Positions 1 through 18,007 of a stretch of 25,037 bases of DNA are shown here, piece after piece. Within the stretch, counting starts at the first letter, position 1; the number at the start of each line of letters is the position of its first letter. A program made the position numbers and the translations under genes. Under the pieces are notes generated by a model that ran no database searches, was not told where the DNA came from, and saw only the letters and a program-made list of their open reading frames with translations. The DNA is from a virus (Duplodnaviria > Heunggongvirae > Uroviricota > Caudoviricetes), in the IMG/VR virus record IMGVR_UViG_3300045988_138129, positions 1 through 25,037 of that record. The stretch is one strand, 5' to 3'.

Positions 1-105
1 CAAGGCTGGGACGGAAGTCACTGTCGTTCTCAAAATCGGTGGAGCTGCATGACAAAGTCATCGGGCATTATCTGAACATAAAACACTATCAATAAGTTGG
101 AGTCA

Positions 106-597
106 TTACCCGCGGATGCGGTGCTCAAGCCCGGCGCGATACCAGTGCAACTGATATTCGAAAGACTGCTCAAAGAAAATCTGCTCCAGCTTTTCGATAG
201 CCTCGTCACTGAAAAAATTCTTTTTCGGTTTGCGCCGCCCGCCTTTGTTGCGGTTAGCGATGTTCGGATTAAGGTCTGCCTCGTTGCCGGTCTGGCTGTA
301 GCGGTTTACCCGTGCCAGTCGTTCAATCTGGCGTCCGAGCAGGTCAATTTCCTTGAAGTCACCGCCGGTTTTCTGCGGTTTGATGATGAGCTGGGTCAGC
401 CGCGCTTCCAGACTCATTTCGACACGGCTGATGGGGGCAACGCTGTCCCAGCCGTCGCGCTGTTTCCAGCTCTGCACCGTCGGGCGTTTCATCTGCAACA
501 TGGCGGCAATCTGCGGCACGGAAAACCCCTGCCAGTACAGCAGCGCCGCCTGACGACGCGGGTCGTGTAAAAGAGTGGTGTCTGTGGTGATGGTCAT
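106..597 (-). CDS. P: Terminase ATPase (large) subunit gpP, N-terminal ~163 codons only; apparently truncated
   Basis: Translation MTITTDTTLLHDPRRQAALLYWQGFSVPQIAAMLQMKRPTVQSWKQRDGW... is the HTH-containing N-terminus of P2-family terminase ATPase. GAGG RBS 9 nt upstream of the ATG at 597. An in-frame TAA at 106-108 ends it far short of the ~590 aa expected, before any ATPase motif. Confidence 0.75.
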   Translation of the reverse strand: MTITTDTTLLHDPRRQAALLYWQGFSVPQIAAMLQMKRPTVQSWKQRDGWDSVAPISRVEMSLEARLTQLIIKPQKTGGDFKEIDLLGRQIERLARVNRYSQTGNEADLNPNIANRNKGGRRKPKKNFFSDEAIEKLEQIFFEQSFEYQLHWYRAGLEHRIRG

Positions 598-770
598 GAA
601 TACCTCGCCGTGATGAATACACGGCAAGGCTACTGAGTCGCGCCCCGCGATTCGCTAAGGTGCTGTTGTGTCAGTGATAAGCCATCCGGGACTGATGGCG
701 GAGGATGCGCATCGTCGGGAAACTGATGCCGACATGTGACTCCTCTAATCACTATTCAGGACTCCTGACA
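598..770. promoter_or_regulatory. Divergent P/O intergenic region, expected site of the late promoters for P (leftward) and O (rightward)
   Basis: 173-bp gap between divergent starts of P (597, minus) and O (771, plus). Contains a TGTTGTGT element and a CCGTG-N7-CACGG dyad. Called from position only; no exact late-promoter consensus was confirmed. Confidence 0.35.
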
Positions 771-1625
771 ATGGCAAAAAAAGTCTCAAAATTCTTTCGT
801 ATCGGCGTTGAGGGTGACACCTGTGACGGGCGTGTCATCAGTGCGCAGGATATTCAGGAAATGGCCGAAACCTTTGACCCGCGTGTCTACGGTTGCCGCA
901 TTAACCTGGAACATCTGCGCGGCATCCTGCCTGACGGTATTTTTAAACGTTATGGCGATGTGGCCGAACTGAAGGCCGAAAAGATTGATGACGATTCGGC
1001 GCTGAAAGGCAAATGGGCGCTGTTTGCGAAAATCACCCCGACCGATGACCTTATCGCGATGAACAAGGCCGCGCAGAAGGTCTACACCTCAATGGAAATT
1101 CAGCCGAACTTTGCCAACACCGGCAAATGTTATCTGGTGGGTCTGGCCGTCACCGATGACCCGGCAAGCCTCGGCACGGAATACCTGGAATTCTGCCGCA
1201 CGGCAAAACACAACCCCCTGAACCGCTTCAAATTAAGCCCTGAAAACCTGATTTCAGTGGCAACGCCTGTTGAGCTGGAATTTGAAGACCTGCCTGAAAC
1301 CGTGTTCACCGCCCTGACCGAAAAGGTGAAATCCATTTTTGGCCGCAAACAGGCCAGCGATGACGCCCGTCTGAATGACGTGCATGAAGCGGTGACCGCT
1401 GTTGCTGAACATGTGCAGGAAAAGCTGAGCGCCACTGAGCAGCGACTCGCTGAGATGGAAACCGCCTTTTCCGCACTTAAGCAGGAGGTGACTGACAGGG
1501 CGGATGAAACCAGCCAGGCATTCAGCCGCCTGAAAAACAGTCTCGACCACACCGAAAGTCTGACCCAGCAGCGCCGCAGCAAGGCCACCGGCGGTGGCGG
1601 TGACGCCCTGATGACGAACTGCTGA
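771..1625 (+). CDS. O: Capsid scaffolding protein gpO
   Basis: MAKKVSKFFRIGVEGDTCDGRVISAQDIQEMAETFDPRVYGCRINLEHL... matches P2 gpO. AGGA RBS upstream of the ATG at 771. The ORF-track start at 705 is an upstream extension. Confidence 0.93.
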   Translation: MAKKVSKFFRIGVEGDTCDGRVISAQDIQEMAETFDPRVYGCRINLEHLRGILPDGIFKRYGDVAELKAEKIDDDSALKGKWALFAKITPTDDLIAMNKAAQKVYTSMEIQPNFANTGKCYLVGLAVTDDPASLGTEYLEFCRTAKHNPLNRFKLSPENLISVATPVELEFEDLPETVFTALTEKVKSIFGRKQASDDARLNDVHEAVTAVAEHVQEKLSATEQRLAEMETAFSALKQEVTDRADETSQAFSRLKNSLDHTESLTQQRRSKATGGGGDALMTNC

Positions 1626-1683
1626 CCGGCGTCAGCCAGTCCGGGAAAACCTTCACGATTAACCCTTAATTTCAGGAAAAACT

Positions 1684-2757
1684 ATGCGCCAGGAAACCCG
1701 CTTTAAATTTAATGCCTACCTGTCCCGTGTTGCCGAACTGAACGGCATCGACGCCGGTGATGTGTCGAAAAAATTCACCGTTGAACCGTCGGTCACCCAG
1801 ACCCTGATGAACACCATGCAGGAGTCCTCTGACTTTCTGACCCGCATCAACATTGTGCCGGTCAGCGAAATGAAAGGGGAAAAAATTGGTATTGGTGTCA
1901 CCGGCTCCATCGCCAGCACCACAGACACCGCCGGTGGCACCGAGCGTCAGCCGAAGGACTTCTCGAAGCTGGCGTCAAACAAGTACGAATGCGACCAGAT
2001 TAACTTCGATTTTTATATCCGCTACAAAACGCTTGACCTGTGGGCGCGTTATCAGGATTTCCAGCTCCGTGTCCGTAACGCCATTATCAAACGCCAGTCC
2101 CTTGATTTAATCATGGCCGGTTTTAACGGCGTGAGGCGTGCCGAAACCTCTGACCGCAGCAGTAACCAGATGCTGCAGGATGTGGCGGTCGGCTGGCTGC
2201 AGAAATACCGCAATGAAGCCCCGGCGCGCGTGATGAGCAAGGTTACTGACGAGGAAGGTCACACGACCTCTGAGGTCATCCGCGTGGGTAAGGGCGGTGA
2301 TTATGCCAGCCTCGATGCACTGGTGATGGATGCGACCAACAACCTGATTGAGCCGTGGTATCAGGAAGACCCTGACCTTGTGGTGATTGTGGGGCGTCAG
2401 CTACTGGCGGACAAGTATTTCCCCATCGTCAACAAGGAGCAGGACAACAGCGAGATGCTGGCCGCTGACGTCATCATCAGCCAGAAACGCATCGGTAACC
2501 TGCCGGCGGTACGCGTCCCGTACTTCCCGGCGGATGCGATGCTCATCACGAAGCTGGAAAACCTGTCCATCTACTACATGGATGACAGCCATCGCCGCGT
2601 GATTGTGGAAAACCCGAAACTCGACCGCGTGGAGAACTACGAGTCAATGAACATTGATTACGTGGTGGAAGACTACGCCGCCGGTTGTCTGGTGGAAAAA
2701 ATCAAGGTCGGTGACTTCTCCACACCGGCTAAAGCGACCGCAGAGCCGGGAGCGTAA
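1684..2757 (+). CDS. N: Major capsid protein gpN
   Basis: 357 aa, MRQETRFKFNAYLSRVAELNGIDAGDVSKKF...; P2 gpN-type major capsid protein in the conserved position after O. Confidence 0.95.
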   Translation: MRQETRFKFNAYLSRVAELNGIDAGDVSKKFTVEPSVTQTLMNTMQESSDFLTRINIVPVSEMKGEKIGIGVTGSIASTTDTAGGTERQPKDFSKLASNKYECDQINFDFYIRYKTLDLWARYQDFQLRVRNAIIKRQSLDLIMAGFNGVRRAETSDRSSNQMLQDVAVGWLQKYRNEAPARVMSKVTDEEGHTTSEVIRVGKGGDYASLDALVMDATNNLIEPWYQEDPDLVVIVGRQLLADKYFPIVNKEQDNSEMLAADVIISQKRIGNLPAVRVPYFPADAMLITKLENLSIYYMDDSHRRVIVENPKLDRVENYESMNIDYVVEDYAAGCLVEKIKVGDFSTPAKATAEPGA

Positions 2758-2760
2758 CCG

Positions 2761-3510
2761 ATGACGAGTCCCGCACAGCGCCACATGATGCGGGTCTCGG
2801 CAGCGATGACCGCGCAGCGGGAAGCCGCCCCGCTGCGACATGCAACTGTCTATGAGCAGATGCTGGTTAAGCTCGCCGCAGACCAGCGCACACTGAAAGC
2901 GATTTATTCAAAAGAGCTGAAGGCCGCGAAAAAACGCGAACTGCTGCCGTTCTGGTTGCCGTGGGTGAACGGCGTGCTGGAGCAGGGCAAAGGTGCACAG
3001 GATGACATTCTGATGACGGTCATGCTGTGGCGTCTGGATACCGGCGATATTGCCGGTGCGCTGGAGATTGCCCGTTATGCCCTGAAGTACGGTCTGACCA
3101 TGCCGGGTAAACACCGCCGCACCCCGCCGTACATGTTCACCGAGGAGGTCGCGCTTGCGGCCATGCGTGCCCACGCTGCCGGTGAGTCTGTGGATACCCG
3201 CCTGCTGACGGAGACCCTTGAACTGACTGCCGCTGCTGACATGCCTGATGAAGTGCGCGCAAAGCTGCACAAAATCACCGGTCTGTTTCTGCGTGACGGT
3301 GGTGATGCCGCCGGTGCGCTGGCGCACCTGCAACGTGCGACACAGCTCGACTGTCAGGCAGGCGTCAAAAAAGAGATTGAACGACTGGAGCGGGAGCTGA
3401 AACCGAAGCCGGAGCCGCAGCCGCAGCCAAAAGCGGCCACCCGTACCCCGCGTAAGACCCGGAGCGTGACACCGGCAAAACGTGGACGCCCGAAAAAGAA
3501 AGCCAGTTAA
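2761..3510 (+). CDS. M: Terminase endonuclease (small) subunit gpM
   Basis: 249 aa, MTSPAQRHMMRVSAAMTAQREAAPLRHATVYEQMLVKLAADQRTLKAIY..., basic PKPEPQPQPK...RGRPKKK tail. Position and sequence match P2 gpM. Confidence 0.93.
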   Translation: MTSPAQRHMMRVSAAMTAQREAAPLRHATVYEQMLVKLAADQRTLKAIYSKELKAAKKRELLPFWLPWVNGVLEQGKGAQDDILMTVMLWRLDTGDIAGALEIARYALKYGLTMPGKHRRTPPYMFTEEVALAAMRAHAAGESVDTRLLTETLELTAAADMPDEVRAKLHKITGLFLRDGGDAAGALAHLQRATQLDCQAGVKKEIERLERELKPKPEPQPQPKAATRTPRKTRSVTPAKRGRPKKKAS

Positions 3511-3609
3511 CAACCGAATGCGCCCCGCGCCAGGGCGGCACGCCGGTCAGTGAGGGTGAATCATCTGACACTGCACCGGCGTCCACCGCCCGACTTTTCA
3601 GAGGTAGTC

Positions 3610-4119
3610 ATGATGACGCTGATTATTCCGCGAAAGGAGGCTCCCGTGTCCGGTGAGGGTACGGTGGTCATCCCGCAACCGGCAGGCGACGAGCCGGTGA
3701 TTAAAAACACGTTCTTTTTTCCCGATATCGACCCGAAGCGCGTCCGGGAACGTATGCGCCTTGAGCAGACTGTCGCCCCCGCCCGTCTGCGTGAGGCCAT
3801 CAAGTCAGGCATGGCGGAAACAAATGCGGAGCTGTACGAGTACCGCGAACAGAAAATTGCCGCCGGTTTTACGCGTCTGGCGGACGTCCCGGCGGACGAC
3901 ATCGACGGTGAAAGCATCAGGGTTTTTTACTACGAGCGCGCCGTGTGTGCGATGGCGACCGCGTCGCTGTATGAGCGTTATCGCGGCGTGGATGCCAGTG
4001 CGAAAGGCGACAAGAAGGCTGACAGCATTGACAGCACCATTGATGAGCTGTGGCGGGATATGCGCTGGGCGGTGGCGCGCATCCAGGACAAGCCGCGCTG
4101 CATCGTGAGTCAAATCTGA
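3610..4119 (+). CDS. L: Head completion/stabilization protein gpL
   Basis: MMTLIIPRKEAPVSGEGTVVIPQPAGDEPVIKNTFFFPDIDPKRVRE... with GAGG RBS before the ATG at 3610. The ORF-track start at 3550 is an upstream extension. Confidence 0.92.
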   Translation: MMTLIIPRKEAPVSGEGTVVIPQPAGDEPVIKNTFFFPDIDPKRVRERMRLEQTVAPARLREAIKSGMAETNAELYEYREQKIAAGFTRLADVPADDIDGESIRVFYYERAVCAMATASLYERYRGVDASAKGDKKADSIDSTIDELWRDMRWAVARIQDKPRCIVSQI

Positions 4120-4322
4120 TGAAGACCTTTGCGCTACAGGGCGACACGCTCGACGCCATTTGTGTCCGGTATTACGGGCGCACTGAGGGCGTGGTTGAGA
4201 CCGTGCTCGCCGCAAATCCGGGACTGGCTGAACTGGGCGCGGTGCTGCCGCACGGCACCGCCGTCGAACTGCCCGACGTTCAGACCGCGCCCGTGGCTGA
4301 AACTGTCAATCTGTGGGAGTAA
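4119..4322 (+). CDS. X: Tail protein X (gpX)
   Basis: 67 aa, MKTFALQGDTLDAICVRYYGRTEGVVETVLAANPGLAELGAVLPHGTAVELPDV...; its start overlaps the L stop (TGATG). P2 gpX position. Confidence 0.9.
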   Translation: MKTFALQGDTLDAICVRYYGRTEGVVETVLAANPGLAELGAVLPHGTAVELPDVQTAPVAETVNLWE

Positions 4323-4325
4323 CGC

Positions 4326-4607
4326 ATGACAGCAGAAGAAAAAAGCGTCCTGTCGCTTTTCATGATTGGGGTGCTGATTGTTGTCGGCAAGGTGCTTGCC
4401 GGTGGTGAACCCATCACCCCGCGTCTGTTTATCGGGCGCATGTTGCTCGGTGGTTTTGTCTCGATGGTTGCCGGTGTTGTTCTGGTGCAGTTTCCTGACC
4501 TGTCATTGCCTGCGGTGTGCGGCATCGGCTCCATGCTGGGTATCGCCGGTTATCAGGTGATTGAGATTGCCATTCAGCGCCGCTTTAAGGGCAGGGGGAA
4601 ACCGTAA
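4326..4607 (+). CDS. Y: Holin (gpY)
   Basis: 93 aa with hydrophobic transmembrane segments (LSLFMIGVLIVVGKVLAGG..., GGFVSMVAGVVLVQF) and a charged C-terminus, placed immediately before the endolysin gene. Confidence 0.9.
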   Translation: MTAEEKSVLSLFMIGVLIVVGKVLAGGEPITPRLFIGRMLLGGFVSMVAGVVLVQFPDLSLPAVCGIGSMLGIAGYQVIEIAIQRRFKGRGKP

Positions 4608-5104
4608 TGCCGGTTATTAACACGCATCAGAATATCGCCGCCTTTCTCGACATGCTGGCCGTGTCCGAAGGGACGGCGAACCATCCGCTGACGAAAAACC
4701 GGGGCTATGACGTGATAGTCACCGGACTGGACGGAAAGCCGGAAATTTTCACCGACTACAGTGACCACCCGTTCGCACATGGCCGACCGGCGAAGGTGTT
4801 TAACCGTCGCGGTGAAAAATCCACGGCCTCCGGTCGCTATCAGCAGCTTTACCTGTTCTGGCCGCATTACCGCAAACAGCTTGCCCTGCCGGATTTCAGT
4901 CCGTTGTCACAGGACAGACTCGCCATTCAGTTGATCCGCGAACGCGGTGCGCTGGATGACATCCGGGCGGGACGTATTGAGCGCGCCATTTCACGCTGTC
5001 GCAATATCTGGGCGTCCCTGCCGGGTGCCGGTTACGGTCAGCGTGAGCATTCACTGGAAAAACTGGTCACCGTCTGGCGTACCGCTGGCGGCGTACCGGC
5101 TTAA
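4607..5104 (+). CDS. K: Endolysin (gpK)
   Basis: 165 aa; start overlaps the Y stop (TAATG). Position in the lysis cassette and P2 gpK-like sequence. Confidence 0.9.
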   Translation: MPVINTHQNIAAFLDMLAVSEGTANHPLTKNRGYDVIVTGLDGKPEIFTDYSDHPFAHGRPAKVFNRRGEKSTASGRYQQLYLFWPHYRKQLALPDFSPLSQDRLAIQLIRERGALDDIRAGRIERAISRCRNIWASLPGAGYGQREHSLEKLVTVWRTAGGVPA

Positions 5105-5118
5105 ACGGAGTAAACACC

Positions 5119-5544
5119 ATGAAGAAATTATCCCTTTCACAGATGCTGAACGTGTCGCTGGCGCTGATGCTGGCACTGTCCCTGATTTACCCGCAGAGCG
5201 TGGCCGTCAATTTTGTCGCCGCCTGGGCGATTCTGGCGACGGTTATCTGTGTGGTTACCGGTGGTGTCGGGGTGTATGCCACTGAGTATGTGCTGGAACG
5301 CTACGGGCGGGAGCTGCCGCCGGAATCGCTGGCCGTGAAGATTGTCACGTCGCTGTTTTTGCAGCCGGTGCCGTGGCGCAGACGGGCGGCGGCTCTGGTG
5401 GTGATGGTGGCGACGTTTATCGCGCTGGTCGCTGCCGGGTGGATTTTTACCGCGCTGATTTATCTTGTGGCGTCGGTGTTCTTCCGGCTGATACGTACGG
5501 CCTGCCGTCAGCGTTTTGAGGGGCGGGAACCATGTCAAAGCTGA
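5119..5544 (+). CDS. lysA: Lysis regulatory membrane protein LysA
   Basis: 141 aa, multi-TM hydrophobic protein downstream of the endolysin; P2 lysA position. Confidence 0.85.
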   Translation: MKKLSLSQMLNVSLALMLALSLIYPQSVAVNFVAAWAILATVICVVTGGVGVYATEYVLERYGRELPPESLAVKIVTSLFLQPVPWRRRAAALVVMVATFIALVAAGWIFTALIYLVASVFFRLIRTACRQRFEGREPCQS

Positions 5545-5957
5545 TGATTGTGCTGGTTGTGTTGTTATCACTGGCGGTGCCGGGGCTGTTTCTGGTGAAG
5601 CATGAAAATGCCAGCCTGCGCACCTCACTGGACAGGGCGAACAGCGTCGCCAGCGGGCAGCAGACGACCATCACCATGCTGAAAAATCAGCTTCATGTTG
5701 CACTCACCAGGGCAGACAAAAACGAGCTGGCGCAGGTGGCACTGCGTCAGGAACTGGAGAACGCCGCGAAGCGTGAAGCACTGCGCGAGAAAACCATCAC
5801 GAGGTTACTTAATGAAAACGAGGATTTCCGCCGCTGGTATGGCGCTGACCTGCCTGATGCTGTGCGCCGGTTGCACCAGCGTCCGGCCTGCACTGACGCC
5901 AGTGATTGTCGCCAACGCCTGCCCGAAAGTGAGCCTTTGCCCGATGCCGGGCAGTGA
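5532..5957 (+). CDS. lysB: LysB, Rz-like inner-membrane spanin
   Basis: 141 aa, N-terminal TM segment (LMIVLVVLLSLAVPGLFLV) then a coiled-coil-like periplasmic region; overlaps the lysA stop. Confidence 0.88.
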   Translation: MSKLMIVLVVLLSLAVPGLFLVKHENASLRTSLDRANSVASGQQTTITMLKNQLHVALTRADKNELAQVALRQELENAAKREALREKTITRLLNENEDFRRWYGADLPDAVRRLHQRPACTDASDCRQRLPESEPLPDAGQ

Positions 5958-6102
5958 CCCGCAGAAGAACGGCGATTTAAGTGCCGATATCCGGCAGCTT
6001 GAGAACGCGCTGGCACGCTGTGCCAGCCAGGTAAAAATGATTAAACACTGTCAGGACGAAAACGATGCTCAAACCCGACAGCCTGCGCAGGGCGCTGACT
6101 GA
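5812..6102 (+). CDS. lysC: LysC, Rz1-like outer-membrane lipoprotein spanin, embedded out of frame in the 3' end of lysB
   Basis: In-frame ATG at 5812 inside ORF 5695..6102 gives MKTRISAAGMALTCLMLCAGC..., a signal peptide with an LCAGC lipobox, followed by a proline-rich mature region. Overlaps the lysB 3' end and the R start. Confidence 0.82.
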   Translation: MKTRISAAGMALTCLMLCAGCTSVRPALTPVIVANACPKVSLCPMPGSDPQKNGDLSADIRQLENALARCASQVKMIKHCQDENDAQTRQPAQGAD

Positions 6103-6532
6103 TGCCGTCACGGTGCTGAAAACTAACCCCGATATGCTGCGGATATTCGTGGATAACGGGAGTATTGCCTCCACACTGGCGACGTCGCTGTCGTTCGAAA
6201 AGCGTTACACGCTCAATGTCATTGTGACCGGCTTTACCGGTGATTTTGACCTGCTCATCGTGCCGGTGCTGGCGTGGCTGCGGGAAAATCAGCCCGACAT
6301 CATGACCACCGACGAAGGCCAGAAAAAGGGCTTCACGTTTTATGCAGACATCAACAATGACAGCAGCTTTGATATCAGCATCAGCCTGATGCTGACCGAG
6401 CGCACGCTGGTCAGTGAGGTGGACGGCGCGCTGCATGTGAAGAATATCCCGGAACCTCCGCCGCCGGAGCCGGTCACCCGCCCGATGGAGCTTTATATCA
6501 ATGGCGAACTGGTGAGTAAGTGGGATGAATGA
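6065..6532 (+). CDS. R: Tail completion protein gpR
   Basis: 155 aa, MLKPDSLRRALTDAVTVLKTNPDMLRIFVDNGSIASTLATSLSFEKRYTLNVIVTGFTGDFD...; P2 gpR. Confidence 0.92.
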   Translation: MLKPDSLRRALTDAVTVLKTNPDMLRIFVDNGSIASTLATSLSFEKRYTLNVIVTGFTGDFDLLIVPVLAWLRENQPDIMTTDEGQKKGFTFYADINNDSSFDISISLMLTERTLVSEVDGALHVKNIPEPPPPEPVTRPMELYINGELVSKWDE

Positions 6533-6977
6533 GTTTAAGCGTTTTGAAGACAGGCTGACCGGACTGATTGAGTCGCTGTCACCGTCAGGGCGTCGGCGAC
6601 TGAGCGCCGAACTGGCGAAACGTCTGCGTCAGAGTCAGCAGCGTCGGGTGATGGCACAGAAAGCCCCGGACGGCACACCCTACGCACCACGCCAGCAGCA
6701 GAGCGCCAGAAAAAAGACCGGTCGCGTTAAGCGAAAAATGTTTGCGAAACTTATCACCAGTCGTTTTTTGCATATCCGCGCCAGCCCTGAACAGGCATCA
6801 ATGGAGTTTTACGGCGGGAAGTCACCGAAAATAGCCAGTGTGCATCAGTTCGGTCTGTCGGAAGAAACCCGGAAAGACGGTAAGAAAATTGAATATCCGG
6901 CGCGTCCTCTGCTCGGCTTTACCGGTGAGGATGTGCAGATGATTGAAGAGATTATCCTGGCTCACCTGAATCGTTAG
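6525..6977 (+). CDS. S: Tail completion / virion morphogenesis protein gpS
   Basis: 150 aa, MNEFKRFEDRLTGLIESLSPSGRRRLSAELAKRLRQSQQRRV...; P2 gpS; start overlaps the R stop. Confidence 0.92.
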   Translation: MNEFKRFEDRLTGLIESLSPSGRRRLSAELAKRLRQSQQRRVMAQKAPDGTPYAPRQQQSARKKTGRVKRKMFAKLITSRFLHIRASPEQASMEFYGGKSPKIASVHQFGLSEETRKDGKKIEYPARPLLGFTGEDVQMIEEIILAHLNR

Positions 6978-7052
6978 CTTTAATCATCTGAGAATATAAG
7001 ATAGAAATCAATTGATTAGCATAATTTATTTTGAATTTTCATGTTAATAAAT

Positions 7053-7075
7053 AAAAGGCCAGTTATTGGCCTTTT
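7053..7075. terminator. Bidirectional hairpin terminator between convergent S and the S-V cargo gene
   Basis: aaaaGGCCAgttatTGGCCtttt: GC stem flanked by A-run and T-run, so it can serve both strands. Sits between the S stop (6977) and the stop of the minus-strand cargo gene (7080). Confidence 0.7.
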
Positions 7076-7079
7076 ATCA

Positions 7080-8153
7080 TTACTTTCCATTTTTTAATGA
7101 ATTGATTAACGATGCTATTTGCTCAATGCCATCAAATGTAGATGGTATCTTATCATCGGATAGCATGATGTTTGAAAATACTACGTCTTCGAATTTTGAA
7201 AGCGCTTCCGGATTGTTTTTCCTTATCTCTGAGGAATAGTCGCTATAACTCTGAATGAACTGACAAAGGCTCTTTCTGAGTTCTATTTGCATAATCTGAG
7301 TTCGTAACGATATATGATTTAGCAGTACAACTCTAAAGTAATACATGAAAATCAATGTAACTGATGCAAAAGGTAGTGCTGACATAAAATATGTGGCAGC
7401 ATTTGTCGTTTCGAGAGCTGGTAATTTATGCATTCCATAGTATATCAGCGGGGAGGGAATGATTATAGCCAAGATGATAAGAGTTATTCTTGATAGCATG
7501 ATTTCACTTTCTTTCTTTTTGCCAAGTGAATTAAAGCCTTCAAACAATCCAACAAAATTAAATGCGACCTCATACCCTTTTAATGACTCTTTGATTGACT
7601 CTATTTTGGCATGTTGCTCCTTTAAGAAGGAGTCGCACTTTTCGAAAAATTGACGCCCTTCGTTTAAACTATCAATGTATTTTTTATATGTGTCAACATT
7701 GCTGGAGCTTAAAACTTCTTTAACCATTGCTAATGGCAGTTCTCTAAGAGAAAAGTCTATCTGTGCTCTGCTCCGCTCATCGAATTCATTATAGTTATAC
7801 AGAGCAAAATCCTTGATGGTTCTTAGTGGTGAAAAGTGAGACTCTATTTCCGGAGAGAGAATGCTTGGTTCAATGATAAATCTAAAAAAGCAAGTGAATA
7901 TAAGGTTGATGCTGTTGTTATCTTCTCCCTTTTCTCTTAAGAAACTTTTAAAGGTGTCGCCAATCATAGCAATGTTGTACTGGGATTTTTTGTCCCAATC
8001 TTCAGGGTTTTCGGAAATGAAGTTTATTGCTTGAGCAATTATTTTGTTTCTGCTTGATTCAAAGTTTGTGCCGGGAGTCAGCGTGTTCAAAAAGACCAGA
8101 TAATCTTTGAACAATTCTTTCATTGTTTCTGACGAGAAAAAGTAAGTACTCAT
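7080..8153 (-). CDS. Hypothetical two-TM membrane protein in the S-V accessory position; candidate abortive-infection or defense protein
   Basis: Uninterrupted minus-strand ORF, AT-rich by eye. Soluble N-terminal ~240 aa, two hydrophobic helices (LSRITLIILAIIIPSPLIYYG; AATYFMSALPFASVTLIFMYYFRVVLL), C-terminal ~85 aa tail. ATG at 8153 (MSTYFF...) gives 358 aa and avoids overlapping V; alternative starts are GTG at 8249 (389 aa, overlaps V) and ATG at 8123. Confidence 0.75.
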   Translation of the reverse strand: MSTYFFSSETMKELFKDYLVFLNTLTPGTNFESSRNKIIAQAINFISENPEDWDKKSQYNIAMIGDTFKSFLREKGEDNNSINLIFTCFFRFIIEPSILSPEIESHFSPLRTIKDFALYNYNEFDERSRAQIDFSLRELPLAMVKEVLSSSNVDTYKKYIDSLNEGRQFFEKCDSFLKEQHAKIESIKESLKGYEVAFNFVGLFEGFNSLGKKKESEIMLSRITLIILAIIIPSPLIYYGMHKLPALETTNAATYFMSALPFASVTLIFMYYFRVVLLNHISLRTQIMQIELRKSLCQFIQSYSDYSSEIRKNNPEALSKFEDVVFSNIMLSDDKIPSTFDGIEQIASLINSLKNGK

Positions 8154-8239
8154 AATGGATTTTGTTGTCCCTTGTTGTTCTGTGCACCAGAAATCGTGGT
8201 GTGATTTACTTCGAGATTGTACAGAATCATTATTATCGA
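8154..8239. promoter_or_regulatory. Divergent intergenic region, expected site of the V late promoter and of the cargo-gene promoter
   Basis: 86-bp gap between the cargo-gene start (8153, minus) and the V start (8240, plus), containing TTGTTGT...TTGTTCTGT elements. Called from position only. Confidence 0.3.
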
Positions 8240-8869
8240 ATGAATGCACAATACAATGAAATTCTTCGCTTTATACGCAATATGATTCGCACTGGCATTA
8301 TCGTCGAAACCGACCTTAATGCCGGTCGCTGCCGTGTGCAGACCGGCGGCATGTGCACCGACTGGCTTCAGTGGCTGACCCATCGCGCCGGTCGTTCGCG
8401 CACATGGTGGGCACCTTCCGTGGGGGAACAGGTGCTGATTCTGGCCGTGGGCGGTGAACTCGACACGGCGTTCGTTCTGCCGGGGATTTATTCCGGCGAT
8501 AACCCCGCGCCGTCGGCGTCGGCGGATGCCCTGCATATCCGTTTCCCTGACGGGGCGGTGATTGAGTATGAACCTGAAACCAGTGCACTCACGGTAAGCG
8601 GAATTAAAACGGCCAGCGTGACGGCTTCTGATTCTGTTACTGCCACGGTGCCGGTGGTCATGGTGAAAGCATCAACCCGCGTCACCCTGGACACACCGGA
8701 GGTGGTCTGCACCAACAAGCTGATTACCGGCACGCTGGAAGTGCAGAAGGGCGGGACGATGCGCGGCAACATTGAACACACCGGCGGTGAACTTTCATCA
8801 AACGGGAAGGTACTGCATACCCATAAACACCCCGGCGACAGCGGCGGCACAACCGGGAGTCCTCTATGA
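8240..8869 (+). CDS. V: Baseplate spike / assembly protein gpV
   Basis: MNAQYNEILRFIRNMIRTGIIVETDLNAGRCRVQTGGMCTDWLQWLTHRAGRSRTWWAPSVGEQ... matches P2 gpV. The ORF-track start at 8162 is an upstream extension. Confidence 0.93.
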   Translation: MNAQYNEILRFIRNMIRTGIIVETDLNAGRCRVQTGGMCTDWLQWLTHRAGRSRTWWAPSVGEQVLILAVGGELDTAFVLPGIYSGDNPAPSASADALHIRFPDGAVIEYEPETSALTVSGIKTASVTASDSVTATVPVVMVKASTRVTLDTPEVVCTNKLITGTLEVQKGGTMRGNIEHTGGELSSNGKVLHTHKHPGDSGGTTGSPL

Positions 8870-9213
8870 CAGCGCGTTATCTCGGAATGAATCGCAGTGA
8901 TGGCCTGACGGTCACTGACCTTGAGCATATCAGCCAGAGTATCGGCGATATCCTGCGCACACCGGTCGGCTCACGGGTGATGCGTCGTGATTACGGCTCG
9001 TTGCTGGCATCAATGATTGACCAGCCGCAGACCCCGGCGCTTGAGTTGCAGATTAAGGTCGCCTGTTACATGGCAGTGCTGAAATGGGAACCCCGCGTCA
9101 CCCTGTCATCCGTCACCACGGCGCGCAGTTTTGACGGGCGAATGACGGTCACGTTAACCGGTCAGCACAACGACACCGGCCAGCCACTTTCGTTAACCAT
9201 CCCTGTGAGTTGA
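8866..9213 (+). CDS. W: Baseplate assembly protein gpW
   Basis: 115 aa, MTARYLGMNRSDGLTVTDLEHISQSIGDILRTPVGSRVMRRDYGS...; gpW/gp25-like baseplate wedge protein; ATGA overlap with V. Confidence 0.93.
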   Translation: MTARYLGMNRSDGLTVTDLEHISQSIGDILRTPVGSRVMRRDYGSLLASMIDQPQTPALELQIKVACYMAVLKWEPRVTLSSVTTARSFDGRMTVTLTGQHNDTGQPLSLTIPVS

Positions 9214-9217
9214 AACC

Positions 9218-10126
9218 ATGCCGATTATCGACCTGAACCAGCTACCCGCACCGGATGTGGTCGAGGAGCTGGACTTTGAAACCATTCTTGCCGAACGCAA
9301 GGCGACACTGATTTCCCTTTACCCGGAAGACCAGCAGGAGGCGGTCGCCCGTACCCTGACGCTTGAATCTGAGCCTCTCGTCAAACTGCTGGAGGAAAAT
9401 GCTTATCGTGAGCTTATCTGGCGTCAGCGTGTGAATGAGGCCGCACGGGCGGTGATGCTGGCCTGTGCTGCCGGTAATGACCTTGATGTGATTGGTGCCA
9501 ATTACAACACCGCGCGCCTGATTATCACCCCGGCAGATGATTCGACCCTCCCGCCGACACCGGCCGAGATGGAATCTGACACCGATTATCGTCTGCGTAT
9601 TCAGCAGGCGTTTGAAGGTTTAAGCGTCGCCGGGTCGGTGGGGGCCTATCAGTATCATGGTCGAAGTGCCGACGGGCGTGTCGCAGATATCTCTGTCACC
9701 AGTCCTTCTCCGGCCTGCGTCACCATCTCTGTGCTGTCACGTGAAAATAACGGTGTCGCATCCGAAGACCTGCTGGCGGTGGTGCGTAACGCCCTTAATG
9801 GCGAGGACGTCAGGCCGGTAGCCGACCGCGTGACCGTGCAGTCTGCCGCCATCGTTGAATACCAGATAAACGCCACGCTTTACCTTTACCCTGGTCCCGA
9901 AAGCGAACCCATCCGCGCTGCCGCCGTGAAAAAACTGGAAGCGTACATCACGGCACAGCACCGGCTGGGGCGCGACATCCGTCTGTCTGCCATTTATGCC
10001 GCTTTGCATGTGGAAGGCGTGCAGCGTGTCGAACTGGCTGCACCACTGGCCGACATTGTGCTCAACAGTACGCAGGCGTCTTTCTGTACCGAATACCGCG
10101 TCGTGACCGGAGGCTCGGATGAGTGA
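9218..10126 (+). CDS. J: Baseplate assembly protein gpJ
   Basis: 302 aa, MPIIDLNQLPAPDVVEELDFETILAERKATLISLYPEDQQEAV...; P2 gpJ position and sequence. Confidence 0.93.
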   Translation: MPIIDLNQLPAPDVVEELDFETILAERKATLISLYPEDQQEAVARTLTLESEPLVKLLEENAYRELIWRQRVNEAARAVMLACAAGNDLDVIGANYNTARLIITPADDSTLPPTPAEMESDTDYRLRIQQAFEGLSVAGSVGAYQYHGRSADGRVADISVTSPSPACVTISVLSRENNGVASEDLLAVVRNALNGEDVRPVADRVTVQSAAIVEYQINATLYLYPGPESEPIRAAAVKKLEAYITAQHRLGRDIRLSAIYAALHVEGVQRVELAAPLADIVLNSTQASFCTEYRVVTGGSDE

Positions 10127-10649
10127 TTCGCGCCTGCTGCCGACCGGCTCATCACCGCTTGAAGTCGCCGCCGCAAAAGCCTGTGCGGAAATTGAAAAAA
10201 CGCCGGTCAGTATTCGTGATCTGTGGAACCCGGATACCTGTCCGGCAAATCTGCTGCCGTGGCTGGCGTGGGCGTTTTCGGTCGACAGGTGGGATGAAAA
10301 GTGGCCGGAAGCGACCAAACGCGCCGTTATTCGCGATGCCTATTTCATCCACTGTCATAAAGGCACTATAGGTGCAATCCGGCGTGTGGTGGAGCCGCTG
10401 GGCTATCTCATCAACGTGACGGAGTGGTGGGAAACCAGTGACCCGCCAGGCACCTTCCGGCTTGATATTGGCGTACTGGAAAGCGGCATCACAGAGGCAA
10501 TGTATCAGGAAATGGAACGGCTTATTGCTGATGCCAAACCTGCAAGCCGTCATCTTATTGGCCTGAACATTACCCGGGATATTCCCGGCTACCTGTTCGC
10601 CGGTGGTGTGGCTTACGACGGCGATGTAATTACGGTTTACCCCGGATAA
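10119..10649 (+). CDS. I: Baseplate / tail fiber-associated protein gpI
   Basis: 176 aa, MSDSRLLPTGSSPLEVAAAKACAEIEKTPVSIRDLWNPDTCPANLLPWLAWAFSVDRW...; P2 gpI. Confidence 0.92.
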   Translation: MSDSRLLPTGSSPLEVAAAKACAEIEKTPVSIRDLWNPDTCPANLLPWLAWAFSVDRWDEKWPEATKRAVIRDAYFIHCHKGTIGAIRRVVEPLGYLINVTEWWETSDPPGTFRLDIGVLESGITEAMYQEMERLIADAKPASRHLIGLNITRDIPGYLFAGGVAYDGDVITVYPG

Positions 10650-10659
10650 GTGAGGAATA

Positions 10660-12750
10660 ATGAGCACAAAATTCAAAACCGTTATCACCACTGCCGGTGC
10701 AGCAAAGCTGGCAGCGGCAACCGCACCGGGAGGGCGGAAGGTCAACATTACCACGATGGCCGTCGGGGATGGCGGTGGTAAATTGCCTGTCCCGGATGCC
10801 GGACAGACCGGGCTTATCCATGAAGTCTGGCGACATGCGCTGAACAAAATCAGCCAGGACAAACGAAACAGTAATTATATTATCGCAGAGCTGGTTATTC
10901 CGCCGGAGGTGGGCGGTTTCTGGATGCGTGAACTTGGCCTGTACGATGATGCGGGAACGCTAATTGCCGTGGCGAACATGGCCGAAAGTTATAAGCCAGC
11001 CCTTGCCGAAGGCTCAGGGCGTTCGCAGACCTGCCGCATGGTCATCATCGTCAGCAGTGTGGCCTCAGTGGAGCTGACCATTGACACCACAACGGTGATG
11101 GCAACGCAGGATTACGTTGATGACAAAATTGCAGAACATGAACAGTCACGACGTCACCCTGACGCCTCGCTGACCGCAAAAGGTTTTACTCAGTTAAGCA
11201 GTGCGACCAACAGCACGTCTGAAACACTGGCTGCAACTCCGAAAGCGGTTAAGGCCGCATATGACCTTGCTAACGGGAAATATACCGCACAGGACGCTAC
11301 CACCGCGCGAAAAGGCCTTGTTCAGCTCAGTAGTGCGACTAACAGCACGTCTGAAACGCTCGCCGCAACGCCGAAAGCGGTAAAGGCAGCATATGACCTT
11401 GCTAACGGGAAATACACTGCACAGGATGCCACAACAGCGCGAAAAGGCCTTGTTCAGCTCAGTAGCGCCACCAACAGCGATTCTGAAACGCTTGCGGCAA
11501 CGCCAAAGGCGGTTAAGACAGCATATGACCTTGCTAACGGGAAATACACTGCACAGGATGCCACCACGGCGCGAAAAGGTCTTGTCCAGCTCAGTAGCGC
11601 CACCAACAGTGATTCTGAAACGCAGGCTGCAACGCCAAAGGCGGTGAAGTCTGCCTATGACAATGCTGAAAAACGTCTTCAGAAAGATCAGAACGGTGCG
11701 GATATTCCGGGAAAGGATACCTTCACGAAAAATATCGGTGCCTGTCGTGCTTATAGCGGCGCTTTGAGCACTGAAGCCGGAAACTGGACAACCGCTCAGT
11801 TTATTGAATGGCTGGATTCCCGTGGTGCATTTAATCATCCGTACTGGATGTGCAAAGGCTCCTGGTCATATGCAAATAACAAAATCATTACGGATACTGG
11901 CTGTGGCAATATTCATCTTGCTGGCGCTGTTATTGAGGTAATGGGCATAAAGTCTGCAATGACTATTCGTATTACCACACCAACAACATCAAGCGGTGGG
12001 GGCACTACAAGCGCGCAATTTACTTATATTAACCACGGGGACAACTATGCTCCTGGCTGGCGGCGTGACTGGAACCGTTACGGCGATTCTATGTCTGGAA
12101 CTATTAATCAGGATAGTGGAAGCCAGAATGCCTATATGTCTACGGCCTTATGTTCCGGCACCAGAGGCGGCAAAAAATATCTCAGAAAGTTTCGTGGTGG
12201 AGAAGGAGACACTATCTGGCATGAAACAGTACAGGGCGGGGTAATTCGCTGGGCGACAGGTAATACTGATGCTCAGGAAGAATTATCACTCAGCTCTGCT
12301 TATGGTCTTCGTTCAAGAGGTGAAATTACATCGCTCAGTGCTAATGGTCTGCGCATTGCTTATGGCAATTATGGATTCTTTATCAGGAATGATGGCGGCA
12401 GCACATATTTAATGCTGACGGCCTCTGGCGATAAATTTGGAACATGGAACGGTTTAAGACCGCTGACTATCAATAACGCCAATGGCGGAGTGTCAATGGG
12501 GCATGGCCTGAGTGTTACTGGACGTGTTAACCCATCAGATTACGGAAATTTTGATTCCCGCTATGTGAAAGATGTTCGCCTGGGTACGCGTGTTGTTCAG
12601 ACCATGCAAAAAGGCGTGATGTATGAGAAATCAGGCCATGTAATTACAGGGCTTGGCATTGTCGGCGAAGTTGATGGCGATGATCCGGCAGTATTCAGAC
12701 CAATACAAAAATACATTAATGGCACATGGTATAACGTCGCACAGGTGTAA
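10660..12750 (+). CDS. H: Tail fiber protein gpH, with an internal tandem-repeat shaft segment
   Basis: 696 aa; N-terminus MSTKFKTVITTAGAAKLAAATAPGGRKVNITTMAVGDGGG... is the conserved P2-type fiber anchor. The C-terminal third is AT-richer and likely the host-range-determining region. Confidence 0.92.
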   Translation: MSTKFKTVITTAGAAKLAAATAPGGRKVNITTMAVGDGGGKLPVPDAGQTGLIHEVWRHALNKISQDKRNSNYIIAELVIPPEVGGFWMRELGLYDDAGTLIAVANMAESYKPALAEGSGRSQTCRMVIIVSSVASVELTIDTTTVMATQDYVDDKIAEHEQSRRHPDASLTAKGFTQLSSATNSTSETLAATPKAVKAAYDLANGKYTAQDATTARKGLVQLSSATNSTSETLAATPKAVKAAYDLANGKYTAQDATTARKGLVQLSSATNSDSETLAATPKAVKTAYDLANGKYTAQDATTARKGLVQLSSATNSDSETQAATPKAVKSAYDNAEKRLQKDQNGADIPGKDTFTKNIGACRAYSGALSTEAGNWTTAQFIEWLDSRGAFNHPYWMCKGSWSYANNKIITDTGCGNIHLAGAVIEVMGIKSAMTIRITTPTTSSGGGTTSAQFTYINHGDNYAPGWRRDWNRYGDSMSGTINQDSGSQNAYMSTALCSGTRGGKKYLRKFRGGEGDTIWHETVQGGVIRWATGNTDAQEELSLSSAYGLRSRGEITSLSANGLRIAYGNYGFFIRNDGGSTYLMLTASGDKFGTWNGLRPLTINNANGGVSMGHGLSVTGRVNPSDYGNFDSRYVKDVRLGTRVVQTMQKGVMYEKSGHVITGLGIVGEVDGDDPAVFRPIQKYINGTWYNVAQV
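11185..11658 (+). repeat. In-frame tandem repeat inside H, ~3.6 copies of a 132-bp (44-aa) unit
   Basis: Unit boundaries at 11185, 11317, 11449 and 11581. Encoded unit (F/L)(T/V)QLSSATNS(T/D)SETLAATPKAVKAAYDLANGKYTAQDATTARKG. Minus-strand ORF 11194..11838 and short plus ORFs here are repeat-generated shadows. Confidence 0.9.
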
Positions 12751-12753
12751 TTT

Positions 12754-13281
12754 ATGCAGCATTTAAAAAATATTACTGCGGGTAATCCCAAAACTGTTGC
12801 CCAATATCAACTGACAAAAAATTTTGATGTTATCTGGTTATGGTCTGAAGACGGAAAAAACTGGTATGAGGAAGTAAGTAATTTTCAGGAAGACACGATA
12901 AAGATTGTTTACGACGAGAATAATATAATTGTCGGCATCACCAGAGATGCTTCAACGCTTAACCCTGAAGGTTTTAGCGTTGTCGAGGTTCCTGATATTA
13001 CCGCCAACCGACGTGCTGATGACTCAGGTAAATGGATGTTTAAGGATGGTGCCGTGATTAAGCGGATTTATACGGCAGACGAACAGCAGCAACTGGCAGA
13101 ATCACAAAAGGCAACTTTACTTTCCGAAGCTGAATCCGTGATTTTGCCGCTGGAGCGCGCTGTCAGGCTGAATATGGCAACAGATGAGGAGCGCAGCCGA
13201 CTGGAAGCATGGGAACGCTACAGCGTTCTGGTCAGTCGTGTGGATCCTGCAAATCCTGAATGGCCGGAAATGCCGCAATAA
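12754..13281 (+). CDS. G: Tail fiber assembly chaperone gpG
   Basis: 175 aa, [41 protein letters not shown]...; Tfa-type fiber assembly protein immediately after H. Confidence 0.9.
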
Positions 13282-13326
13282 GTTGTATGAGCTGACATAC
13301 CTATAGCACAGAGTAAAGTCTAATCT

Positions 13327-13355
13327 GACAGTCCGCTCTGTGCCAAGAGCAGACG
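13327..13355. repeat. Near-palindromic site A (GACAGTCCGCT-ctgtgccaag-AGCAGAC), left boundary of the transporter cassette
   Basis: 7-bp arms GTCCGCT / AGCAGAC with one central mismatch, 10-nt core. Related to sites B (17003) and C (18008). Lies in the 315-bp gap between G and the BetT-like gene. Confidence 0.6.
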
Positions 13356-13596
13356 CTGGTAATTCGTGCCTAATATACTTCACTTAACTTATATCCCAGC
13401 TTTGATACAGATCATACAAATTAAATGCCCCAGTAATTGGCAGGCTGAGTAACTTAAAACTCCTTAGAATATAGGATGATTTGTATCGGCACTCATTCCA
13501 CCATGCATTCCGATTAATCCCGCATAGCCAGTTGAACTTTGCTACTCTGTGAGAGGTAGTACCTTCTATCCAGTGCGGATTTAATTAATGGAATAA

Positions 13597-15600
13597 ATGA
13601 TTATGAGTGAAAATGATACAACCCCAAAGAAGTCTACAAGCCAGGTTAACAAAGCGGTATTCTTTACATCTGCTTTGCTAATTTTCCTTCTTGTCGCCTT
13701 TGCCGCCGTATTCCCGGATGTCGCCGACAAAAATTTTAAACTACTTCAGCAACAAATCTTCACGAATGCCAGCTGGTTCTACATACTTGCTGTGGCCCTG
13801 ATTTTACTGAGCGTCACGTTCCTTGGACTCTCACGTTACGGTGATATAAAGCTGGGCCCAGACCATGCGCAGCCTGATTTCAGCTACCACTCCTGGTTCG
13901 CGATGCTTTTTTCGGCAGGGATGGGGATCGGCCTGATGTTCTTTGGCGTTGCCGAACCTGTGATGCATTATCTTTCGCCACCTGTCGGCACTCCAGAGAC
14001 CGTTGCGGCAGCGAAGGAAGCCATGCGCCTGACGTTCTTCCACTGGGGTCTGCACGCATGGGCAATTTATGCCATCGTGGCGCTGATTCTGGCCTTTTTC
14101 AGTTACCGTCACGGTCTGCCTTTAACGCTGCGTTCTGCGCTCTATCCCATTATCGGCGATCGCATTTACGGGCCTATAGGCCACGCGGTTGATATCTTCG
14201 CCGTGATAGGCACTGTCTTTGGCGTTGCAACATCGCTGGGTTACGGTGTATTGCAGGTGAATGCCGGTTTGAACCATCTTTTCGGCGTGCCCATCAATGA
14301 AACGGTACAGGTCATTTTGATCGTGGTCATCACGGGGTTAGCGACGATTTCGGTGGTGTCCGGCCTGGACAAGGGAATACGCATCCTGTCTGAGCTTAAT
14401 CTGGGCCTGGCGGTGTTGCTCCTGGCGCTGGTCTTGTGCCTGGGTCCCACTGTGCTTCTGCTGAAGTCATTTGTGGAAAATACGGGTGGTTATCTGTCGG
14501 AACTGGTGAGTAAAACGTTCAACCTTTACGCGTATGAACCCAAGTCGAGCAACTGGCTGGGGGGCTGGACATTATTATACTGGGGATGGTGGCTTTCATG
14601 GTCGCCGTTTGTAGGTATGTTCATTGCACGCGTTTCCCGCGGCAGGACAATTCGTGAGTTCGTGACTGGCGTGTTGTTTGTTCCCGCCGGCTTTACGCTC
14701 ATGTGGATGACGGTGTTTGGAAACAGCGCCATCTATCTCATCATGAACCAGGGCGCCACTGACCTCGCCAATACCGTTCAGCAGGATGTTGCGCTTGCCC
14801 TGTTTAATTTCCTGGAGCATTTCCCGTTCTCTTCCGTGCTGTCATTCATTGCAATGGCGATGGTCATCGTCTTCTTTGTAACGTCTGCTGATTCGGGGGC
14901 AATGGTTGTGGATACTCTGGCATCAGGTGGGGTGGCAAACACGCCCGTCTGGCAGCGAATTTTCTGGGCATTGCTCATGGGCGTTGTTGCTATTGCCCTG
15001 CTGATCGCAGGGGGGCTGAGTGCGTTGCAAACCGTAACGATAGCGAGTGCATTGCCCTTCTCAGTTATCTTATTAATATCCATATACGGACTGTTAAAAG
15101 CCCTGCGTCGGGATTTGACCAAGCGTGAAAGCCTTAGCATGGCGACTATTGCTCCTACGGCTGCACGTAACCCAATTCCTTGGCAGAGAAGGTTACGCAA
15201 TATCGCGTATTTGCCGAAGCGCTCTCTTGTGAAACGTTTTATGGACGACATTATCCAACCCGCCATGACGCTGGTTCAGGAGGAACTTAACAAGCAGGGA
15301 ACGATAAGCCACATCAGTGACGCCGCCGAGGATCGTATTCGCCTTGAAGTCGATTTGGGCAACGAGCTGAATTATATATATGAAGTGAGGCTTCGCGGGT
15401 ATAACTCACCGACCTTCGCGCTCGCTGCGCTGGATAATGATGAGCAGCAGAGTGAACAACATCGATATTATCGCGCTGAAGTCTATCTCAAAGAGGGCGG
15501 CCAAAATTATGATGTAATGGGCTGGAATCAGGAACAGCTGATTAATGACATACTGGACCAGTACGAAAAACACCTGCACTTCCTGCATCTGGTTCGTTAA
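13597..15600 (+). CDS. BCCT-family transporter, BetT-like (choline/betaine-type), full length with long C-terminal cytoplasmic domain
   Basis: 667 aa, ~12 hydrophobic helices. BCCT signature GWTLLYWGWWLSWSPFVGMFIARVSRGRTIREF. Conserved blocks resembling BetT at both ends (YGDIKLGP...AMLFSAGMGIGLMFFGVAEPV; QEQLINDILDQYEKHLHFLHL). Alternative start ATG at 13603. Confidence 0.85.
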   Translation: MIMSENDTTPKKSTSQVNKAVFFTSALLIFLLVAFAAVFPDVADKNFKLLQQQIFTNASWFYILAVALILLSVTFLGLSRYGDIKLGPDHAQPDFSYHSWFAMLFSAGMGIGLMFFGVAEPVMHYLSPPVGTPETVAAAKEAMRLTFFHWGLHAWAIYAIVALILAFFSYRHGLPLTLRSALYPIIGDRIYGPIGHAVDIFAVIGTVFGVATSLGYGVLQVNAGLNHLFGVPINETVQVILIVVITGLATISVVSGLDKGIRILSELNLGLAVLLLALVLCLGPTVLLLKSFVENTGGYLSELVSKTFNLYAYEPKSSNWLGGWTLLYWGWWLSWSPFVGMFIARVSRGRTIREFVTGVLFVPAGFTLMWMTVFGNSAIYLIMNQGATDLANTVQQDVALALFNFLEHFPFSSVLSFIAMAMVIVFFVTSADSGAMVVDTLASGGVANTPVWQRIFWALLMGVVAIALLIAGGLSALQTVTIASALPFSVILLISIYGLLKALRRDLTKRESLSMATIAPTAARNPIPWQRRLRNIAYLPKRSLVKRFMDDIIQPAMTLVQEELNKQGTISHISDAAEDRIRLEVDLGNELNYIYEVRLRGYNSPTFALAALDNDEQQSEQHRYYRAEVYLKEGGQNYDVMGWNQEQLINDILDQYEKHLHFLHLVR

Positions 15601-15607
15601 CAGCAAC

Positions 15608-15636
15608 ATGCCGCCACAGAGGCGGCATTTATTTAT
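15608..15636 (+). terminator. Rho-independent terminator after the BetT-like gene
   Basis: ATGCCGCC-acag-GGCGGCAT hairpin followed by TTATTTAT, 8 nt after the stop at 15600. Confidence 0.75.
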
Positions 15637-15663
15637 CCCGGCTGCAATATGAGGGAATGCAGA

Positions 15664-16941: not shown

Positions 16942-17002
16942 TTGCGGAGCAAGCGATACGGTTGTTGGCAAGTCAAGGGCAAAGCATTCGCGTGAGAGTG
17001 GG

Positions 17003-17027
17003 CGTCTGCTTTGTGCCAACAGCGGAC
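17003..17027. repeat. Near-palindromic site B (GTCTGCT-ttgtgccaac-AGCGGAC), between the convergent DUF2254-like and HNH genes
   Basis: Core 8/10 identical to site A in direct orientation. Its arms are the reciprocal variants of site A's arms (A: GTCCGCT/AGCAGAC; B: GTCTGCT/AGCGGAC). Confidence 0.6.
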
Positions 17028-17081
17028 ATTATAGATGGTATATGTAGAAAGTGAACATGCGTAGATTGTATGATTTAGCCG

Positions 17082-17891
17082 TCACTTAATTATTGGATAA
17101 CTCACACAAGTATGACCGTTGCTTATCGCATACATTTGGTTTCCCTTAAGATTTACAAATGGAAATGTCGTATACTCATAATTTATAGAGGTCATATTAA
17201 ATGTAAGGAATTTATCTTCAAGTTCTAATTTTGTAGAGTGGGCAGGGTATGTTCCTTCATTTCTCATTGTGATAATAAAACCGATAGGAAAAAAATGTAA
17301 AGCACAAATAAATGCCACATGTCCTTCGTTCATAAATGCTACACTTTGAGCGGATATGTGCATTCTGTGTGGGTAAAACCAGTAGTAAATATCATGAGTT
17401 TCCTCAAAACTTGAATTTTTACCCAAAACATAATCCTTTAAAGGTGTATAGAAGGGGCTATCTACGGGTTCTTTTTTACAATCTTCAACTGAAGTTGCTG
17501 ATAGCACGTGCCCAATCATAGCCTTAGTGAAAGATATGCTATCAAAAGGTATTCTAATGAATGGATATACATTCATACCATTCATATATCGACTTAACTG
17601 TTCTTTAAAGGACTTTGTTACATTTTCAATTGCAACATCGAGCCCACCTAATACCTTATTGTTACAGTGGCTGCAAATGGTTCTGAAATAAGAGCCATTT
17701 TTAGCATTTAATGGTTTAACTGGTTCCTGAATACCAAAAAATTCGCTAACTGTTTTCTGCAAAACAGGGCCTAAGGTTATGGCGCACTTTGGAGGAACAT
17801 GATCTTTTGTGAGCAAGCCATATTTCCCACAAATATTGCAATAACCTTCAGTAATGCCATTGTGCTTCCATCGTTCACTAATTTTCGTCAT
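17082..17891 (-). CDS. HNH endonuclease-domain protein (N-terminal HNH motif, C-terminal domain of unknown function)
   Basis: 269 aa, AT-rich, GAGGGA RBS before the ATG at 17891. Motif C-N-I-C-G-x9-D-H-V-P-P-K ... N-x12-C-S-H-C-N-N-K fits the CxxC...(D/H)H..P...N...CxxC(N)xK HNH zinc-finger nuclease pattern. Confidence 0.78.
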   Translation of the reverse strand: MTKISERWKHNGITEGYCNICGKYGLLTKDHVPPKCAITLGPVLQKTVSEFFGIQEPVKPLNAKNGSYFRTICSHCNNKVLGGLDVAIENVTKSFKEQLSRYMNGMNVYPFIRIPFDSISFTKAMIGHVLSATSVEDCKKEPVDSPFYTPLKDYVLGKNSSFEETHDIYYWFYPHRMHISAQSVAFMNEGHVAFICALHFFPIGFIITMRNEGTYPAHSTKLELEDKFLTFNMTSINYEYTTFPFVNLKGNQMYAISNGHTCVSYPIIK

Positions 17892-18007
17892 TTTTATTCC
17901 CTCAGTAGCATAAGCTATCTATACGTTTTTTAATCCTATCAAAGATACAACTTAACGTCAGGAAAATGATAGTGTTTATCTAAGTAATACAATTAACTTC
18001 AACGCGT

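Follow-up and report, generated by a model that had tools for sequence, protein, structure and literature searches.

A probable IS1 insertion in the terminase gene P of a P2-like prophage from human-gut Escherichia coli

Close to its left edge, the 25,037-nucleotide stretch of DNA analysed here (the window) encodes only the first part of a P2-family terminase large subunit. We consider it highly probable that gene P of an otherwise complete P2-like prophage has been split by a simple insertion of IS1, accompanied by duplication of a 9-bp target, and that the edge of the window is an assembly break. In the sequence of events that we propose, a copy of IS1 would have transposed into P of a Peduovirus prophage residing between yegR and yegQ in a human-gut E. 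coli, inserting after nucleotide 487 of 1773 and duplicating the 9-bp target CGCGGATGC. The reading frame of P would then enter the inverted repeat of IS1 by two bases and meet a TAA, giving a 163-aa fragment that comprises only the HTH region, while the rest of P, followed by Q and the early genes, would lie on the other side of IS1.

A truncated terminase ORF beside an IS1 end

The features at the left edge of the window are as follows.

1..110, plus strand: right-hand end of an IS1 element (110/110 identity), comprising the last transposase codons and the terminal inverted repeat
88..110, minus strand: IS1 right terminal inverted repeat, GGTAATGACTCCAACTTATTGAT as read on the minus strand
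106..597, minus strand: truncated terminase large-subunit ORF, P' (ATG 597..595, TAA 108..106, 163 aa)
111..119, no strand: right-hand copy of the 9-bp target-site duplication CGCGGATGC, whose second copy is at 14658..14666 of the partner contig described below (locus L006)
598..770, no strand: P-O intergenic region, with the late-promoter site assigned by position only

The first-pass annotation of this DNA stated that a terminase of a family whose members are about 590 aa long ends here after about 163 codons, at a TAA that follows the HTH region and precedes any ATPase motif. This description was accurate in each respect. Both gpP of phage Wphi and the P that we reconstruct below are 590 aa long, and the minus-strand ORF P' comprises 163 aa before its TAA at 108..106. 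The Pfam model Terminase_5, which describes the gpP-type N-terminal HTH, matches P' at residues 12-69 (E 4e-28, 97.5 bits against a score cutoff of 20.3 bits), and the other Pfam matches of P' are to generic HTH models only. In full-length Wphi gpP the Terminase_6N ATPase domain spans residues 164-386 and the Terminase_6C nuclease domain residues 413-571; a Pfam search of the 163-aa P' found neither this ATPase nor the RNaseH-like nuclease.

Residues 1-162 of P' are gpP sequence, identical to those of WP_000156847.1, the terminase of an intact E. coli prophage, and different at one residue from those of Wphi gpP. Gly163 and the stop codon derive from the IS1 end: two bases of the Gly163 codon (111..109) come from the terminal repeat, and the TAA (108..106) lies wholly within it. 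Base 111 corresponds to position 2508 of Wphi, in which gene P occupies 1222..2994 on the minus strand, and the break, after nucleotide 487 of the 1773-nt gene, separates codon 162 from codon 163 immediately ahead of the ATPase domain. Compared with gpP of P2 and Wphi, the gene is thus split after codon 162 and the encoded product is devoid of the ATPase and nuclease domains. Judged by its sequence, P' is a gene fragment and not a functional member of the terminase family. A 157-aa plus-strand ORF at 97..570, which begins within the IS1 end and reads through P' in antisense, is almost certainly a mechanical ORF opposite a well-conserved gene, and not a gene itself.

The intergenic region upstream of P' (598..770) presumably corresponds, by its position, to the segment that contains the divergent late promoters of P2. 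It lies inside a match in which identity exceeds 98.5% with Wphi and other P2-like phages and reaches 99.956% with the intact E. coli prophage. A scan for the strict Ogr-type pattern TGT-N12-ACA found nothing in this intergenic region and two matches elsewhere, which is below chance expectation.

The first-pass annotation had also observed that bases 1..105 do not continue a terminase and had proposed a search for insertion sequence ends at the junction. Such an end is present, since bases 1..110 are the right end of IS1. Complete IS1 elements measure about 768 bp and encode the InsA/InsAB' DDE transposase; they are strongly polar and create 9-bp target duplications. In a megablast search of the plasmid collection, bases 1..110 were identical over 110/110 positions (E 2e-50) to at least 5000 records, and all of the plasmid matches lay under genes annotated as IS1-family transposases, labelled IS1A, IS1B or IS1X2. 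In the plasmid record examined (L002), the identical 110 bases extend from the last ~95 bases of the transposase coding sequence through the end of the element. In the window itself, the InsB part of the transposase is read in frame 3 as its last ~31 codons, with the stop at 93..95, and the equivalent IS1 fragment in a second locus carrying the junction (L004, see below) matches the Pfam model PF03400 (DDE_Tnp_IS1). The visible part shows no difference from the IS1 of E. coli, Shigella and their plasmids; as it comprises 110 of ~768 bp, neither the isoform nor the integrity of the transposase gene can be read from it.

Every phage or E. coli match to the window, whether bases 1..3000 or 1..25000 were used as the query, starts exactly at base 111. 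As P homology ends abruptly at this base and IS1 takes over, neither a frameshift nor a sequencing error was accepted as an explanation of the truncation. The first-pass annotation had named such an error, restoring a full-length P followed by Q and cos, as what would contradict its reading; distal P and Q were recovered on the partner contig OGWT01000048.1, across IS1.

The reciprocal junction and its recurrence

We searched for the reciprocal junction with a pattern consisting of ...GGATAT, a gap of 0-14 bases and the IS1 left end GGTGATGCTGCCAAC. One metagenome contig matched, the 72-kb OGWT01000048.1 (L006), which reads from distal P as ...GGATAT CGCGGATGC GGTGATGCTGCCAACTTACTGATTTAG... 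and ends 55 bases into IS1. This junction was found in metagenome contigs only and not in the genome-contig collection, and it lies on a different contig from the window, possibly from a different sample. The L006 copy of CGCGGATGC (14658..14666) immediately precedes the left end of IS1, whose inverted repeat GGTGATGCTGCCAACTTACTGAT is at L006 14667..14689 and matches the right repeat GGTAATGACTCCAACTTATTGAT at 18/23 positions, the two ends being on different contigs. The closest intact relative, an E. coli prophage in NZ_CP062901.1, reads without interruption as ...TTTCAGGATAT CGCGGATGC GGTGCTC..., and CGCGGATGC is single-copy in the uninterrupted gene P (L005 6001..6009).

When L006 up to 14657 was joined in silico to 111..597 of the window, a 1773-nt ORF of 590 codons for amino acids resulted, whose product is identical to WP_000156847.1 and one residue different from Wphi gpP. 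The matching 9-bp duplication and the perfect reconstructed P together argue for a single IS1 transposition without an adjacent deletion or inversion. The ATPase and nuclease domains are encoded across IS1, at L006 13372..14657, and this distal part of P is cut off by IS1 from its own start and promoter. The first-pass annotation had suggested a deletion, insertion or rearrangement junction near position ~105. Of these, the insertion was borne out, with the position corrected to 110|111, while deletion and rearrangement are contradicted by the intact distal P, Q and early region on L006 and by the matching duplication. Its remark that portal gene Q and cos are not visible in the window is also accurate: both are placed beyond IS1, and Q was read on L006.

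The junction seen in the window recurs. Exact look-up of the 163-aa product returned six metagenome contigs, all of 20-50 kb except one of 6.8 kb. The k127 human-gut assembly ERZ920157 contributes one of them, 25,123 bp long, and ERZ19634338 another, and the same junction nucleotide is found in at least three independent assemblies, including these two. Such recurrence across independent assemblies argues that the junction is no chance feature. Both of the loci that we read (L003 and L004) cross this junction and stop ~110-120 bases into IS1, and by blastn the window aligns to them through the junction with one mismatch and no gap. The IS1 part of the window differs at 2/110 bases from L003 10493..10611 and L004 6684..6795, and the phage part in the same assemblies has one mismatch in 10.5 kb. 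We attribute the two base differences, given the identical junction, to different IS1 copies that were collapsed at contig ends, so that the IS1 isoform at the P site is not readable from these contigs.

All contigs carrying either junction end inside IS1. The suggestion of the first-pass annotation that the edge of the window hides a junction was therefore well founded: the left edge is an assembly break inside a multicopy repeat, the short-read assembly having stopped 110 bases into IS1 because the element is multicopy. A comparable situation is described in a preprint (bioRxiv 10.64898/2026.05.19.726188), in which short-read assemblies break at IS1 and an IS1 insertion in wcaA was settled only by long reads. 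Neither junction was present in any of 5,426 complete E. coli genomes or among the GTDB species representatives, which suggests a source lineage without a closed genome in these collections.

The remainder of the prophage and its cargo

From base 111 to its end at 25037, the window aligns to the NZ_CP062901.1 prophage without gaps and with 11 mismatches in 24,927 bp (99.956%). Two features complete the picture on this side.

771..24830, plus strand (two cargo ORFs on the minus strand): remaining P2-like late region, O to ogr, and two cargo slots, in gapless alignment with the NZ_CP062901.1 prophage
24933..24959, no strand: attR core of 27 bp, AAAAAATAAGCCCGTGTAAGGGAGATT, with an identical 27-mer at L006 5051..5077

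The late genes are ordered O, N, M, L, X, Y, K, lysABC, R, S, V, W, J, I, H, G, FI, FII, E, T, U, D and ogr, and the window is collinear with P2, Wphi, pro147 and fiAA91-ss; as in P2 and Wphi, P is divergent from O-N-M-L and the genes that follow. All 29 coding sequences from O to ogr, cargo included, are free of internal stops and differ by at most one amino acid from their counterparts in the NZ_CP062901.1 prophage. L006 supplies int, C, cox, the early genes, A, a DUF4238 gene and the portal gene Q at full length, at 99.9-100% identity, and its prophage part shows ~5 differences from the same reference in 9.6 kb, most of the divergence being in flanking host DNA. The attL core (L006 5051..5077) lies between yegR and int, and the relative in NZ_CP062901.1 sits between yegR and yegQ. 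The conserved late-gene order, the integrase and the att cores at both ends, taken from the window and L006, place the element among the P2-like phages (Peduovirus). As reconstructed from these two contigs, the element is a complete prophage of ~34.5 kb in which one lesion was found, IS1, and a complete prophage bearing a single lesion argues for a recent event. The term cryptic, which the first-pass annotation had applied, overstates the decay, since the other genes and both att cores are intact; its statement that cargo genes are retained agrees with the intact state of all 29 coding sequences.

The window stops 78 bases past attR, its ends being IS1 on the left and the prophage/host junction on the right. 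Ends at the boundaries of mobile elements on both sides would be consistent with a mixed population in which only some cells carry the prophage.

The non-P2 cargo of the prophage occupies the customary variable slots and comprises the following genes. The first three lie in a non-P2 island at 13282..18227, between the tail-fibre assembly gene G and the sheath gene FI, a position that we take to be the Z/fun slot of P2.

13603..15600, G-FI island: BCCT betaine/carnitine/choline transporter (PF02028, E 3e-199)
15664..16941, G-FI island: DUF2254 membrane protein
17082..17891, minus strand, G-FI island: 269-aa ORF, no Pfam or PADLOC match
7080..8123, minus strand, between S and V: 347-aa ORF, no Pfam or PADLOC match

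The intact prophage of NZ_CP062901.1 carries the same G-FI island, and the counterpart of the 347-aa ORF in this relative is WP_000661081.1, annotated in RefSeq only as hypothetical; the S-V slot presumably corresponds to that of orf30 in P2. On the other side of IS1, the DUF4238 gene (L006 11004..11933) lies between the replication gene A and the portal gene Q, which we take to be the place where P2 carries old/tin, and its protein and DUF4238-Pers, a candidate defence model of PADLOC, match over their full length (E 1.5e-219). Intact relatives also carry all of the cargo genes, which have no connection with the IS1 event. Within the tail-fibre gene H, a ~355-bp segment at 11175..11661 matches itself at an offset of 131 bp with 87% identity, which indicates internal tandem-like repeats in the fibre shaft.

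Competing explanations, consequences and known parallels

An IS1-mediated deletion or inversion, with unrelated DNA beyond IS1 in the genome of the window and a truly truncated remnant of the prophage, would accommodate a window that stops inside IS1 with its own far side out of view. IS1 promotes deletions adjacent to itself, and no closed genome has the insertion structure. We nevertheless consider this explanation improbable: no matching duplication of the target would be expected after an adjacent deletion, whereas a contig with the exact reciprocal junction and the identical 9-bp duplication exists, the prophage on that contig is about as close to the reference as the window is (~5 differences in 9.6 kb), and the reconstructed P is perfect. 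Still less credible, to the point of being barely worth entertaining, is that the join between IS1 and P is an assembly chimera and that P is intact in the real genome. Metagenome assemblers may mis-join at repeats, and the 2/110 IS1 bases at which the window differs from L003 and L004 do reflect repeat collapse at contig ends, but a random mis-join would reproduce neither an identical junction nucleotide in at least three independent assemblies, with six contigs encoding the exact 163-aa product, nor a reciprocal junction bearing the 9-bp duplication typical of IS1.

A different kind of alternative accepts the insertion and regards the HTH-only fragment as a selected product, dominant-negative or DNA-binding, that hampers packaging by incoming P2-like phages or P4, the insertion locking useful cargo in the chromosome. 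The allele recurs in several gut metagenome samples, P' retains a complete Terminase_5 HTH and the native promoter region, and the cargo of the prophage includes a PADLOC candidate defence gene. Yet the fragment is 100% identical to the corresponding stretch of intact P, no decay is seen elsewhere in the prophage, a recent and possibly neutral clonal event fits these data better, and recurrence across samples may reflect one circulating clone; we think it very unlikely that the fragment is selected. We give just as little credence to the related idea that IS1::P is no neutral accident but keeps a P2-like prophage with its cargo "grounded" in a gut E. coli lineage. The HTH-only gpP fragment behind the late promoter would in that case hinder superinfecting P2-like phages or P4 satellites in assembling terminase or recognising cos.

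If a simple IS1 insertion has split P, as we favour, the prophage is very probably incapable of packaging DNA, as the first-pass annotation had proposed. Without a functional large terminase, neither infectious P2 particles nor helper-dependent P4 particles would be expected. Both gpM and gpP are required for P2 DNA packaging (PMC7552001), so the prophage should neither package its own DNA nor support P4. Expression of the portal gene is probably reduced as well: the late promoter drives both genes in one transcript, with P ahead of Q, and as IS1 is strongly polar, an insertion in P is likely to affect Q downstream in the same late unit. The immunity, lysis, tail and cargo genes would remain intact, and if IS1 were excised precisely between the two 9-bp repeats, P would regain its original sequence. 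The term non-inducible, also used in the first-pass annotation, would apply to a P2-type prophage with or without this lesion, as such prophages are not known to be SOS-inducible; by itself, a test of induction would therefore be uninformative.

The practical value of these observations is that an apparently truncated gene at the edge of a contig can be a repeat-induced assembly break, and that the hidden half of the gene can be recovered by predicting the reciprocal insertion sequence junction. Biologically, they point to one recent, clean and reversible step of prophage domestication, in which a single IS1 insertion would remove packaging and probably portal expression. The finding raises no new question. 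Both of its parts are already known, one being IS1 and the other gpP from a Peduovirus prophage that is common in E. coli, and prophages are well known to become defective when insertion sequences inactivate their genes. A literature search for IS1 insertion in a P2 terminase found no specific precedent; IS1::P is an unrecorded allele and not a new kind of thing. The nearest parallel is the "defective prophage pool" of E. coli O157:H7, in which prophages are disrupted by IS629. As in those prophages, a resident insertion sequence inactivates a morphogenetic or packaging gene of a recognisable prophage; here, in contrast, the element is IS1 and not IS629, the prophage is P2-like and not lambdoid, and it bears one lesion and not several defects.
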